Shown piece by piece: positions 12,088 to 19,270 of a DNA stretch of 32,846 nucleotides. The stretch comes from a virus (lineage: Duplodnaviria; Heunggongvirae; Uroviricota; Caudoviricetes). Position numbers and translations under genes: made by a program. Each line of letters begins with the position of its first letter. The first letter of the stretch is position 1. The stretch is from the IMG/VR virus record IMGVR_UViG_2660238446_000011; one strand, 5' to 3'. The notes under the pieces were generated by a model, which saw only the letters and a program-made list of their open reading frames with translations, searched no databases and was not told the origin of the DNA.

Positions 12088-12104
12088 TTTTGTGGAGAAA
12101 GTTG

Positions 12105-12467
12105 ATGCGTGATATTCAGATGGTTCTGGATCGTTGGGGTGCATGGGCGGCGAGTGATAGTTCTGGGGTAGACTATTCGCCTATAGCTGCTGGGTTTAAA
12201 GGGCTTCTTCCCTATACAAGCAAAACACGTCAGGCTTGTTCAGATAGTGATGCATTAATTATTGAAGGTTGTCTTGCTCGTCTAAAGCAAAAAAGACCTG
12301 AAGAACACTCGCTTCTTGTTGCCCATTACCTATACGGTATCTCTAAAAGAAAGCTCGCTAAAGCTCGCAAAAAGGATGAGAAAATAATACGCATTGAGAT
12401 ACAGATGGCTGAGGGATTTATAGAAGGTTGTCTAGCTATTCTAAATGTTAGCTTAGATATGGATTAA
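12105..12467 (+). CDS. Q: late gene antiterminator Q (small Q family, QuuD-like)
   Basis: MRDIQMVLDRWGAWAA...AAGFKGL...IEGCLA parallels E. coli DLP12 QuuD as recalled; position after nin genes. Confidence 0.8.
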   Translation: MRDIQMVLDRWGAWAASDSSGVDYSPIAAGFKGLLPYTSKTRQACSDSDALIIEGCLARLKQKRPEEHSLLVAHYLYGISKRKLAKARKKDEKIIRIEIQMAEGFIEGCLAILNVSLDMD

Positions 12468-12479
12468 TATCTTGGTTTG

Positions 12480-12512
12480 GATAAGCAGGTGTGCTTGCAC
12501 CTGCTTAATATT
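12480..12512. terminator. hairpin between convergent Q and membrane-protein genes (AAGCAGGTG-tgcttg-CACCTGCTT), possible bidirectional terminator
   Basis: 9-bp perfect stem seen in sequence; flanking U-runs are weak on both strands. Confidence 0.4.
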
Positions 12513-12963
12513 ATATGTGGGGTAATATCCAGTTTATTTTCCTCCAGGTACTTGCAAATGAAACTATTGATACGATCAGGGTCGAGAAACCATATAAGGT
12601 TAGGGCGAAATCAAGTCTTACAGAGGTAATGGTGATTTTTTCATTTATAAACATTGCTATCAGCGGGAAAATACATGCTAATATTAAGGTAACTCCCGTA
12701 GATAACAGGTTATGAATAATTTTAGGTAAAATCTTGTTTTGTTTTAAAGCAAAAATAATTCCATCAGTACTTGAACTTGCAGAACTGAAGATGGAAATAG
12801 CGGCCAATACAAAACCAAACAAAATGCCTGCCACCGTAGATAACACTCCGGCTGTACTTAAGATATCAGAGTGAGCCATAGGCGCTAGGTATTTCCCAAG
12901 CACCCAAGCTAACAGCCCACTGATAACTATGTTAATTAAAACTTTAATAAGCATAATCATCAT
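12511..12963 (-). CDS. small integral membrane protein, four predicted TM helices (150 aa); RexB-like topology
   Basis: Four hydrophobic segments read from the translation (IKVLINIVISGLLAWVL; GVLSTVAGILFGFVLAAISIF; LLSTGVTLILACIFPLIAMFI; FALTLYGFSTLIVSIVSF); appears AT-rich by eye; second gene of a minus-strand pair. Confidence 0.65.
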   Translation of the reverse strand: MMIMLIKVLINIVISGLLAWVLGKYLAPMAHSDILSTAGVLSTVAGILFGFVLAAISIFSSASSSTDGIIFALKQNKILPKIIHNLLSTGVTLILACIFPLIAMFINEKITITSVRLDFALTLYGFSTLIVSIVSFASTWRKINWILPHI

Positions 12964-12977
12964 CCTTAAAAATAAGA

Positions 12978-13910
12978 TCAGATTTCATATTGCTTTAAAT
13001 ACTGACCATGTTCAATTTTAGCACTGATCAAGGCAGTACGCACATCTGTTTCTTTTGCGTAGCCATCTTTTGTGTTAATGTTTTTTTCACTGATCAGAAC
13101 TTGATTGAGAAGACTCCTTGAATGAGTATTTTTAGGTTCAGTGACATTAGCTTTACGTAATAAGTGAGGAACTTTTTCTATTAATTCCTTTATTCCACTT
13201 TTTACTTCATCACTGAGATAACCACGGATTAATTTACGTTGCGATGCTCTACCTCTAAGTGATAGTTTTAAATGCGAACCGCCCATCCCAGCCATCATTT
13301 CAATCATACTTTTGGAAAATGAATTCGAAAGGTCATAATCCGTTGCGCTAAAATTACGTGGAGCGGCGAGTGTAATTTCACAGCTACGTAAAGTGCTTCC
13401 TGTTTCAAGTAGTTCTTTTACACTTTCTTTTTTCCAAATTGCCTCAAACGCTACAGGTTTGTTTTCTTCAGAAAAATTGAATAAAAGAAATGCTAAATCG
13501 GAAACTTTAGGTCCTAAATGATTTTGAGATAAAACAAGAATGTCTTTCTTATAGTAGTAAATAAAATAAGTGCGTTCGACTATATATTTTTTATCATCTA
13601 ACGGAATATTGTGCTCATCCCAATTTTCATCACCAATATAAGGTAAGTGGAAACCATCACGAGAGCATGATAGATAACCAAAATAGAACTCCGCCTGTGC
13701 GTCTTTTTCTAAGAATACAATCTTTAATTTTTTCTTATCAAACTCAGCGGTATAAGAATTTTGCGAAGGTGTAACAATGGTTGTATACATGTTGTCAAAT
13801 GCAAGTTGTGCATTTGATGTAGTTGACTTCGTTCCTGAGGAGCTTTGGAAGAAACCGATACGCATTTTTTTTTGTTTAGTTAGTGGCGCGGAAGTGGCTG
13901 TAGTAGTCAT
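12978..13910 (-). CDS. hypothetical soluble protein (310 aa), first gene of a two-gene cargo operon; RexA-like by size and order only
   Basis: ORF with AAGGG 9 nt upstream of the ATG; 14-nt gap to the downstream membrane gene; Ser/Thr-rich N-terminus; no recognised motif. Confidence 0.6.
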   Translation of the reverse strand: MTTTATSAPLTKQKKMRIGFFQSSSGTKSTTSNAQLAFDNMYTTIVTPSQNSYTAEFDKKKLKIVFLEKDAQAEFYFGYLSCSRDGFHLPYIGDENWDEHNIPLDDKKYIVERTYFIYYYKKDILVLSQNHLGPKVSDLAFLLFNFSEENKPVAFEAIWKKESVKELLETGSTLRSCEITLAAPRNFSATDYDLSNSFSKSMIEMMAGMGGSHLKLSLRGRASQRKLIRGYLSDEVKSGIKELIEKVPHLLRKANVTEPKNTHSRSLLNQVLISEKNINTKDGYAKETDVRTALISAKIEHGQYLKQYEI

Positions 13911-14564: not shown

Positions 14565-15617
14565 ATGAAAAATACTGTAAAAATAAACAGTGTTGATTTA
14601 ATCAACGCTGATTGCCTGCATTTTATTCAGTCCCTGCCTGATGATTCCATTGACCTGATTGTTACCGATCCGCCGTACTTCAAGGTGAAACCCAACGGCT
14701 GGGACAATCAGTGGAAAGGGGACGAAGATTACCTTAAGTGGCTGGACCACTGTCTGGCCCAGTTCTGGCGGGTGTTAAAACCTGCCGGAAGCCTTTACCT
14801 GTTCTGTGGGCATCGCCTGGCATCTGATATTGAGATCATGATGCGTGAACGTTTCAACGTGCTTAACCATATCATCTGGGCGAAGCCGTCCGGACGTTGG
14901 AATGGGTGTAATAAAGAAAGTCTGCGTGCATATTTTCCTGCCACAGAGCGCGTTCTGTTTGCTGAACATTACCAGGGGCCATATCGCGGCAAAAGTGACG
15001 GCTATGCGGCAAAAGAAAGGGAACTCAAACAGCACATAATGGCACCGCTGATTTCGTATTTCAGGGATGCTCGTGCCGAACTGGGTATAACGGCAAAACA
15101 AATTGCCGAAGCCACAGGTAAGAAAAATATGGTTTCCCACTGGTTTGGTGCCAGTCAGTGGCAGTTGCCGAATGAGGCTGACTATCGGAAGTTACAGGCA
15201 CTGTTTTCCCGTATAGCGGCAGAGAAGTTTCAGGAACAACAACTGGAACAACCACACCACCAGCTGGTGGCATCTTATGATTCACTGAATCGCAAATATT
15301 CTGAATTGCTGGATGAGTTTAAATCTCTCCGGCGCTATTTCTCCGTATCAGTCTCCGTGCCTTATACCGATGTCTGGATGCATAAACCCGTTCAGTTCTA
15401 CCCGGGTAAACATCCGTGTGAGAAACCGGCGGATATGCTCAGGCAAATAATCAATGCCAGTAGTCGACCTGGTGATCTGGTTGCTGATTTTTTTATGGGC
15501 TCCGGTTCCACAATAAAAGCAGCAATGGCGTTGGGGCGTCGGGCCTTAGGTGTTGAGCTTGAGTCAGAGCGGTTTAACCAGACAGTGAAAGAGATAAACG
15601 AGCTGGTGGGGAAATAA
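14565..15617 (+). CDS. DNA methyltransferase (N6-adenine or N4-cytosine), DPPY motif, no partner endonuclease in the window
   Basis: [11 protein letters not shown] catalytic motif near the N-terminus and a C-terminal AdoMet-type region ([13 protein letters not shown]) indicate a beta-class amino-MTase. Confidence 0.8.
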
Positions 15618-15684
15618 TCTGGTGGCCACGTCAGGTGGCCTTTTTATTTCCATTACACAGCACCCGCATCTGCGAGGTGGGGTT

Positions 15685-15900
15685 ATGAAATCCATGGATA
15701 AGTTAACAACGGGTGTCGCCTATGGCACCTCAGCAGGTAGTGCCGGGTACTGGTTTTTACAGTTGCTCGATAAAGTCACGCCCTCACAGTGGGCGGCATT
15801 AGGTGTGCTGGGTAGTCTGGTATTTGGCTTGCTGACGTATCTGACAAACCTTTATTTCAAGATTAAAGAAGACAAGCGTAAGGCGGCACGGGGAGAGTAA
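15685..15900 (+). CDS. class II holin (phage 21 S21 pinholin-like) with dual-start MKSM motif
   Basis: [62 protein letters not shown] nearly matches S21 as recalled; track ORF starts further upstream at 15622. Confidence 0.85.
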
Positions 15901-15904
15901 TTCA

Positions 15905-16255
15905 ATGACTCAAAACTATGAACTGATTGTGAAAGGGATCCGCAATTTTGAGAATAAAGTTACGGTAACTTTAGCGTTACGGGACAAAAAACGCTTTGCC
16001 GGTGAAATTTTTGACCTGGACATCTCGCTGGACCGTGTTGAAGGTGCCGCGCTGGAGTTTTATGAGGCAGCAGCCAGAAGGAGCATCAGACAGGTCTTCC
16101 TGGATGTTGCTGCCGGGTTATGTGAAGGGGATGAGCAGTCGCCGGAAAAGCGCCCCGTAATTTTAGAGGCGCAGAATGTATGGATAACCTACAAAGGAAA
16201 GCTACCGGGAAGAATTACTGGTTCTCTGAAGACTCCTCCGGAATCACAACCTTAA
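15905..16255 (+). CDS. hypothetical protein (116 aa) between holin and endolysin
   Basis: ORF packed inside the lysis cassette; no family recognised. Confidence 0.5.
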   Translation: MTQNYELIVKGIRNFENKVTVTLALRDKKRFAGEIFDLDISLDRVEGAALEFYEAAARRSIRQVFLDVAAGLCEGDEQSPEKRPVILEAQNVWITYKGKLPGRITGSLKTPPESQP

Positions 16256-16318
16256 GTCACTGACCGGAACAGATAAACCTGTCCGTGGGCAGAAACCGAT
16301 AAATCCTGATAAATATCC

Positions 16319-16852
16319 ATGAACGCAAAAATCAGATACGGCCTGTCGGCTGCCGTTCTGGCACTGATTGCCGTCGGTGCGCCCGCGCCTGATATTCTCG
16401 ACCAGTTTCTGGATGAAAAAGAAGGTAACCACACAACGGCATACCGCGATGGGTCCGGCATCTGGACCATCTGTCGGGGTGCCACGATGGTGGATGGAAA
16501 ACCCGTTTTTCCCGGTATGAAACTGTCGAAGGAAAAATGCGACCAGGTCAACGCCATTGAGCGTGATAAGGCGCTGACATGGGTGGAGCGCAATATTAAA
16601 GTACCACTGACTGAACCACAGAAAGCGGGTATCGCCTCATTTTGTCCCTATAACATTGGCCCAGGTAAGTGTTTTCCGTCGACATTTTATAAGCGGCTGA
16701 ATGCTGGTGATCGAAAAGGCGCCTGCGAGGCGATTCGCTGGTGGATTAAGGATGGTGGCAGAGACTGCCGTATTCGTTCCAATAGCTGCTTTGGGCAAGT
16801 TTCGCGTCGGGACCAAGAAAGTGTGCTGGCGTGCTGGGGGATAGACCAGTGA
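16319..16852 (+). CDS. SAR endolysin (T4-lysozyme-type muramidase with N-terminal signal-anchor-release domain)
   Basis: N-terminal Gly/Ala-rich weakly hydrophobic segment ([16 protein letters not shown]) followed by an E...D...T catalytic region ([20 protein letters not shown]); pairs with a pinholin as in phage 21. Confidence 0.85.
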
Positions 16853-16857
16853 ATAAC

Positions 16858-17370
16858 ATGTTTGCTAATGCTTGGTTGAAAGTTGCCACGGTTTCGGCTC
16901 TCCTCATTGCCTCATTTGTTGCAGGGAGTGTGTGGACGGAACGAGCATGGGAAAAGAAATGGGCGGATCGTAATAGTGAAGAATCCTCTCAGGCTGTGAA
17001 CGCTCAGATAGCTGCTCGTATGATTGAACAAGGGCGAGTGATCGCTCGTGATGAGGCTGTTAAAAATGCACAAGAACAGGCTGCAAAAGCGGCTGCGAAT
17101 GTTGCTGGCCTGTCTGCCACTGTTAACCAGCTGCGCACCGAAGCAACAAAACTTACCGTCCGCTTGGACGCTGCAAAGCACACCTCAGGTCTTGCCGTTG
17201 CCGTCGGAAGCAAAACAACCGCCACCAACGCCGCGATGCTTGCCGACATGCTCGGAAGTATTGCAGAAGAAGCTAGATACTATGCTGGGCGAGCTGATGA
17301 AAGTTACTTGGCTGGAATGACATGTGAACACATTTACGGCTCAGTGAGGGACTCAAGTAGTGTTAAATAG
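16858..17370 (+). CDS. Rz-like inner-membrane spanin (i-spanin)
   Basis: N-terminal TM segment ([18 protein letters not shown]) followed by an Ala/Gln-rich coiled-coil-like region; Rz1 reading frame embedded; track start 16831 overlaps the endolysin. Confidence 0.75.
17066..17320 (+). CDS. Rz1-like outer-membrane lipoprotein spanin (o-spanin), embedded in the +1 frame of Rz
   Basis: Basic n-region, hydrophobic core and lipobox LLTSC, then a proline-rich mature region ([12 protein letters not shown]...[10 protein letters not shown]); entirely inside the Rz gene. Confidence 0.7.
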
Positions 17371-17558
17371 CTGGTATGATGATGTTGAGAAGGCGGCACA
17401 GCAGGAGCTGTAATCGACGAGTGCTAATCTAGCACAATTGAGTTCACAAATTGTCTACTTTTGCTATATTGCAACCGATGCCAACAGCCTTTTTTGAGCA
17501 AAAATCATAAATGCTATCGTGTTGGCAGTTTTTTTCTTTGACGACACGGAATGATTTT

Positions 17559-17981
17559 ATGTCAGAAGTAGCTGTTGAACTTGAAGAGGATTCTTGGCCT
17601 GACTTTTTCCCGGTTGGAGTACCGCCGAAATCAGCCGTCCCTGCTGAGGGCGAGTTTTTCCGTTTGGTAAGGTCTAATCCACCAACCCCTGCATGTTTCC
17701 TCTCTACACATGAAGAGTATCCGCAGCGGCACAAAAAGTATCGTGGGGAAGCACTTCAGTGTGTCTATGGAACATCATTCTTTTCAGAATCGCGCGGGGC
17801 TACGGATGCAAAAGCTAAATTTCCTGCAGCTCTTGGTCATCGACTCGTTGCTAGTGGTCAGGTCACCCCCGTTTTCGGAGTAATGAAAAAAACATTTGCC
17901 GATCCAGCGCACTACACAATTTGGCTTAAGCGTAATTGTGCTATTCATGAACATTTTCACTGTATAGGAGAAGGCGTATGA
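17559..17981 (+). CDS. hypothetical protein (about 140 aa) with C-terminal Cys/His cluster; first gene of a two-gene cargo module
   Basis: Start at MSEVAVELEED (track ORF begins at 17511); C-terminal CAIHEHFHC cluster; stop overlaps the next start (ATGA). Confidence 0.55.
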   Translation: MSEVAVELEEDSWPDFFPVGVPPKSAVPAEGEFFRLVRSNPPTPACFLSTHEEYPQRHKKYRGEALQCVYGTSFFSESRGATDAKAKFPAALGHRLVASGQVTPVFGVMKKTFADPAHYTIWLKRNCAIHEHFHCIGEGV

Positions 17982-19270
17982 GTAACGTTTTTCTACCTAA
18001 TACAATGATGGGCACTCTATGTTACAAAAGAGTTTATGAGTTCTTCGAAGAGCCTCGCTTCTTTTCAGTTGAAAATGAAGTTAGTACACTTTTTATCGTT
18101 TACTGGATTGGTGAGGATGATGAATGTGATAGTTGGTTTATCATACCAATTTCTCCAGGGCGATTAGAGTTGATTGAAAGAAAAAGAATATGTATCCGTG
18201 ATGCTTTGATTAATCAGGAGCAAAACTTTTTCTATGAAGCCCATATACCATACGATCGTACAGGCAAAGTGACTTGGCTGAGTAAAAACTTGGTTGATAT
18301 ATTTGAAATACCTTTGCCTGTTTCTGAACTATATATAAGTTCGGTAGTTCCAGTAATGCCAAATGGTAAACTAGGCGAGGCTATTACTTACTCAACTCAT
18401 GAGATCCATTTAGAAAAAAGCTCAAAGAAAAGTGCAAAAAATTTGGTTTTAAGTCATGTGTCAAACGTATGCGACAGATTCAGCGATCTTTATGACAGAA
18501 TGCTGGAGATGGCAAAGTGCAAAGATAAATTACGTCCTGTCGATGCGCGGCCTGGTTCCTTTATCATTTCTTTTAAAGCTGAGAAATTACATTCCTTTGA
18601 AGACACTTTTAAAGAATTAAGCAGGCTGATAGAACTTAGAGCTGATATTATTCCTTTTGTTTTCGAAAAGGGTATTGATGTTCCAGCTTTGACAGATCTC
18701 TTACAATCCATAGTTGAAACCGGAACGAATATGGAACTCAAAAGCAACCAGACAGGTGAATTAGCTTTTGTTATTACAAAAGCTGGTGCTGAGTTCTATT
18801 TAAAAAAATTATCACGTCTTTCTACCTCATTGGTTGGAGGGCATCAAATACCTCAAGCAGATGTCCTCGAGACAGTTTATAAATTAGTGGAAATTGTTTG
18901 GAGTGGCGAACCACTTACTCCTATTAATACTGGTTTGCAAGATAGACATATCTACTATTATAAGCATGCAGCTAAAGTTTTGGGATTACTTGATAGCTTT
19001 GGTAATGTCACAACGTCTGGTCAACAACTCGTACAAAGTGATGAGATGACTAGACATAAAATTGCAGCGAGAAAATTTGAAGTGAGTCATGTGGGATGGG
19101 CTTGGATAAATTGGGCCAGTGTTGAACATTTATCCCAAATTGATCCTGACAGCGCTTTAGACTTCCTATTGGAGCAATGCCACTCTTTAAGTCGTGATAC
19201 TATTGAACGACGTGCTACAACTATTAAACACTGGTGCCGTGAATTGAAAAATTATTATACACCTCTGTAA
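17978..19270 (+). CDS. hypothetical protein (430 aa), unknown function; second gene of the cargo module
   Basis: Long ORF that appears AT-rich by eye; translationally coupled to the upstream ORF; followed by an intrinsic terminator; no recognised catalytic motif, but two R-x(5-6)-H patterns near the C-terminus (RKFEVSH, RRATTIKH). Confidence 0.65.
   Translation: MSNVFLPNTMMGTLCYKRVYEFFEEPRFFSVENEVSTLFIVYWIGEDDECDSWFIIPISPGRLELIERKRICIRDALINQEQNFFYEAHIPYDRTGKVTWLSKNLVDIFEIPLPVSELYISSVVPVMPNGKLGEAITYSTHEIHLEKSSKKSAKNLVLSHVSNVCDRFSDLYDRMLEMAKCKDKLRPVDARPGSFIISFKAEKLHSFEDTFKELSRLIELRADIIPFVFEKGIDVPALTDLLQSIVETGTNMELKSNQTGELAFVITKAGAEFYLKKLSRLSTSLVGGHQIPQADVLETVYKLVEIVWSGEPLTPINTGLQDRHIYYYKHAAKVLGLLDSFGNVTTSGQQLVQSDEMTRHKIAARKFEVSHVGWAWINWASVEHLSQIDPDSALDFLLEQCHSLSRDTIERRATTIKHWCRELKNYYTPL

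Follow-up and report, generated by a model that had tools for sequence, protein, structure and literature searches.

The open reading frame at positions 15905..16255 of the window, that is, of the whole 32,846-nt stretch of viral DNA analysed here, is well supported as a member of the YdfR family (DUF1327) and corresponds to the ydfR gene of the Qin prophage of Escherichia coli K-12. It is an optional accessory insert of the lysis region and does not belong to the lysis machinery. Both the gene and its position are already known, being standard in Qin-type lysis cassettes and annotated in thousands of genomes. The first-pass annotation of this DNA, which saw an unrecognised protein wedged between holin and endolysin and suggested a lysis regulator or a moron, is partly supported: the gene is indeed an accessory one, the protein belongs to a named family whose type member sits at the same position in K-12 Qin, and the role of lysis regulator is unsupported. 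The setting is the late region of a lambdoid prophage, with the Q antiterminator at 12090..12467 and terminase genes from 19575. The lysis cassette and its signals are laid out as follows.

15624..15650, + strand: intrinsic-terminator-like hairpin and T-run, stem GGCCACGTCAGGTGGCC then TTTTTATTT, between the methyltransferase and holin genes
15685..15900, + strand: S21-type class II holin (pinholin family) of 71 aa with an MKSM dual-start motif (PF04971 'P21 holin S', E 9.5e-35)
15890..15897, + strand: Shine-Dalgarno-like GGGGAGAG for ydfR, within the final holin codons, read from the sequence
15905..16129, + strand: ydfR codons 1-75, the conserved DUF1327 N-terminal domain, 80% identical to K-12 YdfR residues 1-74
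16130..16255, + strand: ydfR codons 76-116 and stop, the variable 'tail T' (EKRPVILEAQNVWITYKGKLPGRITGSLKTPP...), of low model confidence
16256..16318, + strand: non-coding leader before the lysozyme gene, 3' end ..AACCGATAAATCCTGATAAATATCC
16319..16852, + strand: RrrQ-type lysozyme of 177 aa with a Gly/Ala-rich hydrophobic N-terminus (PF00959)
16858..17370, + strand: Rz-like inner-membrane spanin (DUF2514; PF10721, E 6e-45; PHROG 312)
17099..17320, + strand: embedded Rz1-like outer-membrane lipoprotein ORF with a lipobox, in the +1 frame of Rz, start approximate

The ydfR-type frame runs on the + strand from an ATG at 15905 to a stop codon at 16253-16255 (116 codons), beginning 4 nt past the stop of the 71-aa holin gene and ending 63 nt ahead of the lysozyme gene. 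The motif GGGGAGAG at 15890-15897 is a possible ribosome-binding site for ydfR, and the junction between holin gene and ydfR is the same as that of essQ-ydfR in K-12. The 116-aa frame is real and coding, far above a chance ORF. In a set of 39 distinct alleles the ydfR frame has a dN/dS of 0.47 (N-domain 0.47, tail 0.41), as against 0.80-0.87 in the two other frames. The product is soluble and devoid of a hydrophobic segment (top 19-residue Kyte-Doolittle mean 0.69, where the holin reaches 1.68 and the lysozyme N-terminus 1.87), and it is mildly acidic, with a pI of 6.3 for the window protein and 5.4 for its N-domain. ORF, coding signal and hydropathy are all in agreement with the earlier description of a soluble 116-aa protein between holin and endolysin. 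A 54-codon frame inside ydfR (15996..16160, +, in the +1 frame) is open in only 29 of the 39 alleles, some of which are just 54% identical; this and a dN/dS of 0.87, where the ydfR frame of that segment gives 0.57, led to its rejection as a gene, and it is a by-product. No promoter-like or terminator-like sites were found between 15900 and 16320, and GC content across ydfR (0.42-0.53) shows no clear break from that of its neighbours (0.48-0.54).

Assignment to the family comes from several sources. The window protein matches Pfam DUF1327 (PF07041) with 143.1 bits over residues 1-112 (E 3.1e-42; cut-off 25), the N-domain alone scoring 126.5 bits, and PHROGs 2091 and 406, neither with an annotated function, are matched at E ~1e-67. 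RefSeq holds a 100% identical copy annotated as 'YdfR family protein' and near-identical copies annotated likewise. DUF1327/YdfR is a small family: a set of 5.8 billion proteins yielded 322 homologous clusters, and one of 1.84 billion yielded 90 representatives. In E. coli ydfR-like DNA is present in 4349 of 5426 complete genomes (~80%), with up to 10 copies per genome, and YdfR is encoded in 101 phage records. NCBIfam gave no match for YdfR, and among the PADLOC defence HMMs no family was matched at E <= 0.01. The literature on 'DUF1327' offers a passing mention in one paper and that on essQ/rrrQ nothing useful, while ydfR is absent from the main text of an envelope-screen paper cited for it. 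A scan of genome contigs for E. coli-type ydfR, which relied on two exact peptide patterns, returned Escherichia and Shigella only; relatives in Yersinia and Pantoea that it missed were recovered later by an exhaustive HMM search. E. coli-type ydfR also turned up in assemblies labelled as a Veillonella parvula MAG, a Bacillota MAG and Enterococcus faecalis (L086, L088 and protein P0072), most likely as binning or contamination artefacts.

The closest known arrangement is that of K-12 Qin, where YdfR (b1555, P76160, PF07041) fills the same slot in the order essQ-ydfR-rrrQ-rzpQ/rzoQ. The two proteins are 80% identical over residues 1-74, and their tails beyond residue 74 are unrelated: K-12 YdfR is 103 aa long, has a predicted helical tail and overlaps the rrrQ start with its stop, whereas the window protein has 116 aa, 'tail T' and a 63-nt spacer to the lysozyme. 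The window holin is nearer to EssD (98.6% identity) than to EssQ (93%). The lysozyme is 91% identical to K-12 RrrQ and 33% to RrrD, and with a Kyte-Doolittle mean of 1.87 at residues 9-27 it is predicted to be of the SAR type. Downstream, the Rz-like protein (57% identical to RzpQ) could be read from GTG 16831, its ATG at 16858 coming after the lysozyme stop, and the Rz1-like ORF is nested within it much as rzoQ lies inside rzpQ. The cassette is therefore a mosaic of an EssD-like holin, an RrrQ-like lysozyme and a divergent Rz, as judged from a comparison of window positions 15685-17370 with loci L001 and L189. The first-pass picture of the neighbours is borne out by PF04971 for the holin, by PF00959 for the lysozyme with its hydrophobic N-terminus, and by DUF2514 together with the lipobox ORF for the Rz/Rz1 pair. 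The leader in front of the lysozyme gene (window 16275-16321) is A/U-rich and carries a GATAAAT direct repeat common to the window-like classes; its 3' ~30-45 nt are largely common to the aligned E. coli cassette variants, and its last ~18 nt to nearly all aligned variants that contain ydfR. No purine-rich Shine-Dalgarno sequence is obvious before the lysozyme start. A structured RNA in the 63-nt leader was considered and dropped, the fold z-score of 0.22 not being significant.

Several further genes flank the cassette. An N6/N4 DNA methyltransferase gene (350 aa, 14565..15617, +) lies between Q and the holin gene, with the strong hairpin at 15624..15650 at its end, just ahead of the holin start, through which Q-modified late transcription would have to read. 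Two opposite-strand genes (12511-12963 and 12978-13910, -) lie between Q and the late genes, at the cargo site that is occupied by stx in Stx phages; the former encodes 150 aa with no family, the latter 310 aa with DUF6731, and neither has a PADLOC match. Between Rz and the small terminase subunit are two overlapping genes (17511-17981 and 17978-19270, +) with weak matches to PD-T4-10 candidate defence proteins (E 1.3e-5 and 2.8e-4), the second also matching DUF6575 and DUF7226, and the two may form a defence pair carried by the prophage.

The presence of ydfR between holin and lysozyme is polymorphic, as a comparison of related prophages at this junction makes plain. A sample of 80 IMG/VR loci was anchored on holins with at least 94% identity to that of the window. 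In 67 of them ydfR is absent and the holin is joined directly to a lysozyme of the RrrD/R21 type, in 11 ydfR stands between the holin and an RrrQ-type lysozyme, and 2 were left unassigned. When the sample was anchored instead on the lysozyme (80 loci, at least 92% identical, 78 of them with upstream sequence), ydfR was found in 76 of the 78, a top-80 sample that is biased to close relatives of the window. Across the phage collection, RrrQ-type lysozymes (at least 80% identity) occur in 356 records and YdfR in 101, the counts for lysozyme and YdfR respectively being 124 and 2 for Stx2a, 46 and 41 for Stx1a, and 15 and 15 for Stx2c. In TL-2011c and VT1-Sakai the holin gene, a 4-nt gap and an RrrQ-type R gene follow one another with nothing between. 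Three cassette types are thus observed: S-R with an RrrD-type lysozyme, S-R with an RrrQ-type lysozyme, and S-ydfR-R with an RrrQ-type lysozyme. In E. coli lysis cassettes ydfR is found only beside RrrQ-type lysozymes (11/11, 76/76 and 3 phages). A strict coupling of the two was rejected in view of the 356 versus 101 records and the two inspected phages in which S directly precedes R.

These cassette types also qualify the earlier statement that phage-21-type cassettes run without an intervening gene. It holds for the R21/RrrD type, as in 67 of the 80 holin-anchored loci and in K-12 DLP12: phage 21 (S21-R21-Rz/Rz1) and DLP12 (essD-rrrD-rzpD/rzoD) share the order and the embedded spanin pair of the window, while their RrrD/R21-type lysozyme, 33% identical to that of the window, abuts the holin with no gene between. 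Elsewhere an intervening ydfR is common, as the 4349 of 5426 genomes attest. The cassettes of 933W, H-19B and VT1-Sakai share with the window a pinholin-family S, an RrrQ-type lysozyme ~90% identical to that of the window and the same 4-nt gap after the S stop; they have no ydfR, however, and R comes directly after S. Such a cassette is a natural 'deletion' control, and since the same lysozyme type and pinholin occur without it, ydfR is dispensable for lysis. The idea of a moron riding on late transcription survives in part: ydfR comes and goes between homologous, colinear flanks (holin type and lysozyme type), is dispensable and lies downstream of Q, but it has neither a promoter and terminator of its own nor a deviant base composition. 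As for an antiholin or releasin, ydfR encodes no transmembrane segment, falls in no matching Pfam family and is not constantly present with a cognate holin or endolysin. On the first-pass annotation's own grounds for refutation, ydfR is a conserved member of its cassette type but not one characterised for a part in lysis.

YdfR is built of a conserved N-terminal domain and a C-terminal part that behaves as a swappable module. A model of residues 1-72 made from a diverse 36-sequence alignment reached a pLDDT of 89, the first full-length model having been poor (pLDDT 55), and the predicted fold comprises strands at 5-14, 18-27 and 33-43 and a helix at 50-72. Y53 and E54 are invariant across the 36 diverse DUF1327 members, and the alignment shows the motifs YEL..VK, V.VTV and (D/E)R.EG..L.(F/Y)YE in the N-domain. 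A structure search with the N-domain gave generic matches only (Z <= 6.3) and no convincing relative, a search of BFVD gave nothing at E <= 1e-3, and a sequence-profile search of the PDB gave nothing significant; assignment of a function from the fold was abandoned on these grounds. The homology and structure searches that had been proposed for this gene therefore yielded a family, DUF1327, and no convincing structural relative. Among 94 loci YdfR is 103, 104, 114, 116, 174, 176, 183, 206, 268 or 296 aa long, the longer forms having an extra coiled coil followed by a ~110-aa domain. At the DNA level a constant 5' part up to ..CTGAAGACTCC is followed by variable cargo of 0 to >270 nt and then by the lysozyme leader, the last ydfR codons spanning the cargo-insertion junction; the ydfR of the window is the cargo-less form. 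In L161 (2401-2958) and L167 a 185-aa protein without a DUF1327 domain occupies the holin-lysozyme slot; its parts are the coiled coil and the C-terminal modules, which the 268- and 296-aa forms of YdfR carry as fusions. Pfam recognises no domain in the C-terminal extensions of YdfR or in the 185-aa replacement protein.

Beyond E. coli, Yersinia, Pantoea and metagenomes yielded, in the exhaustive search, proteins of 72-76 aa that consist of the N-domain alone and are ~30% identical. Their genes lie between the tail genes M and L, between L and K, after I, between Q and holin, or between Rz and terminase, and such positions outside lysis cassettes argue against a role of the domain that is tied to the endolysin or holin. 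In all eight independent distant-homologue contexts an opposite-strand gene of 70-182 aa lies 9-41 nt downstream, and this tail-to-tail layout is also found in the E. coli phages Evi and PhiR12_2_star and in the IMG/VR loci L110, L141, L135 and L129, the 3' ends of some pairs in E. coli variants overlapping. A partner of this kind very often accompanies DUF1327 genes, and prophages of Escherichia, Yersinia and Pantoea carry the pair at many different places in the late operon. Window and K-12 Qin are both without an opposite-strand partner. The partner genes are assigned to several unrelated PHROGs; no homology among them was detected with BLASTP, Pfam or PHROGs, and neither YdfR nor the partners matched a defence system. 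The pairs located are the following.

DUF1327/partner pairs: L170 511-966; L171 446-992; L172 1636-2160; L173 4001-4811; L178 529-1070
DUF1327/partner pairs: L180 3501-3986; L183 3501-4321; L186 705-1232; L177 2501-3040; L176 2501-3218
DUF1327/partner pairs: L110 2313-2901; L141 2128-2893; L135 2117-2864; L129 1742-2872

The sole functional lead for YdfR is the binding of RNase E, which is reported in one paper. There a two-hybrid screen picked up codons 1-72 of K-12 ydfR on three occasions (PMC13232886, RNA Biol 2026). Residues 1-72 gave bacterial two-hybrid signals with Rne(1-597), as did full-length T25-YdfR, and a full-length short-linker fusion interacted with Rne(1-597) only (PMC13232886). 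Strep-YdfR co-purified chromosomally encoded Rne(1-598)-FLAG together with DNase-resistant nucleic acid, and YdfR overproduction changed few transcripts and left growth unaffected (PMC13232886). The pull-down was made with the overproduced K-12 protein from lysates without nuclease treatment (PMC13232886), so that the contact between YdfR and RNase E is possibly bridged by RNA. Given 80% identity over the reported binding segment (1-74), it is plausible that the window protein shares the binding of RNase E. Engagement of RNase E has precedents in other phages, with T4 Srd likewise targeting the N-terminal half of the enzyme (PMC13232886) and phiKZ Dip (gp37) acting as a modulator of it (PMC4980113). 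T4 Srd, Dip and T7 gp0.7 offer a possible functional analogy only, as phage proteins that engage RNase E, and no sequence or structural homology of YdfR to these known modulators was found.

Tentatively, and at somewhat less than even odds, YdfR is read here as a dispensable late protein of the cytoplasm that engages RNase E or RNA through its N-domain. Its expression along with the lysis genes, as part of the Q-dependent late operon, and its nature as a small soluble cytoplasmic protein are well supported. The N-domain (residues 1-72) would dock on host RNase E at the catalytic N-terminal half, either by direct contact or via RNA. Docking could then alter RNA processing or decay late in infection, and the changeable C-terminal tail may add specificity or partners. 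Several points speak against this. The evidence for RNase E binding comes from a single paper and from overproduced K-12 protein in lysates without nuclease treatment, the full-length short-linker fusion interacted with Rne(1-597) only, and overproduction had little effect on transcripts and none on growth (PMC13232886). The window protein is mildly acidic and shows no surface obviously suited to RNA, the fold search gave generic matches only, and within E. coli lysis cassettes ydfR is seen solely beside RrrQ-type lysozymes, which could point to a link with the lysozyme instead.

Such a link is the substance of a distinctly unlikely alternative, in which YdfR is a cytoplasmic regulator of lysis timing dedicated to SAR lysozymes of the RrrQ type, or to the combination of such a lysozyme with the pinholin, perhaps by binding the short cytoplasmic N-terminus of the lysozyme or by tuning its translation. 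The gene does lie inside the cassette, 4 nt past the holin, and the E. coli cassettes that have it all continue with an RrrQ-type lysozyme, none with one of the RrrD/R21 type; moreover, the lysozyme gene lacks an evident Shine-Dalgarno sequence and has a conserved leader. The window holin, however, already bears the MKSM dual start, which gives the phage 21 holin its own antiholin. Accessory control of a SAR endolysin has a precedent in the 'releasin' gp25 of Mu (DUF2730), which is encoded near the endolysin and controls its release (PMC9239132). Releasin and the classical antiholins are membrane-tethered, however, whereas YdfR has no hydrophobic segment and no Pfam kinship with them. Mere adjacency can account for the linkage to RrrQ, and there is no co-variation, the YdfR N-domain ranging from 53% to 99% identity beside lysozymes that are 92-97% identical. 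The idea is weakened further because S-R cassettes with the same lysozyme type, those of 933W and most Stx2a phages, lack ydfR, and because distant homologues lie among tail genes or near terminase, far from lysis genes. No positive evidence for a lysis regulator was obtained.

The tail-to-tail pairs raise another reading, rather unlikely for the window gene, according to which YdfR is the orphaned half of a mobile two-gene cassette and its function is tied to the opposite-strand partner, perhaps as a late-expressed neutraliser of, or RNA-level switch for, a lysogen-expressed gene. The partner is present in 8/8 distant contexts, the layout recurs in Evi, PhiR12_2_star, L110, L141, L135 and L129, the partners fall in recognised PHROGs, and the occurrence of the pair at many late-operon sites is as expected of a mobile unit. 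Yet the partner families have no detectable mutual homology, neither they nor YdfR match a defence system, opposite-strand morons, bor among them, are in any case frequent in this region, and most E. coli copies (those of the window, K-12 and the 104-aa types) are partner-less but remain under purifying selection. It is very improbable that ydfR has no function for the phage and merely hitch-hikes between two essential lysis genes in largely cryptic prophages. A fairly high dN/dS of 0.47, the many truncated, frameshifted and internally deleted copies, the ready loss of the gene and the near absence of an effect of overproduction in K-12 (PMC13232886) would fit such a passenger. Conservation of the N-domain from Escherichia to Yersinia/Pantoea, with invariant residues and a confident fold, argues against it, as do a dN/dS below 1 in the ydfR frame only and the retention of ydfR by inducible phages, e.g., vB_EcoS-611R1, mEp460 and YYZ-2008. 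The engagement of RNase E can also be joined to the paired layout, in a speculative and fairly improbable proposal: the DUF1327 N-domain would be an RNase E/RNA docking module, originally half of a mobile tail-to-tail gene pair, that steers RNase E to particular transcripts on induction, and the copy in the window would have kept this domain as a derivative without a partner. Targets might include the antisense-overlapping, lysogen-expressed mRNA of the partner or a lysis or late mRNA.

YdfR is among the most widespread E. coli prophage genes lacking an assigned function, and the report on RNase E in K-12 supplies a concrete, testable hypothesis for it, for which the natural cassettes with and without ydfR are ready-made controls. 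If the binding of RNase E matters at induction, temperate lambdoid phages, including Stx1a and Stx2c phages, would manipulate host RNA decay, and the proposed docking module, if true, would be the first RNase E adaptor or modulator from temperate lambdoid phages.
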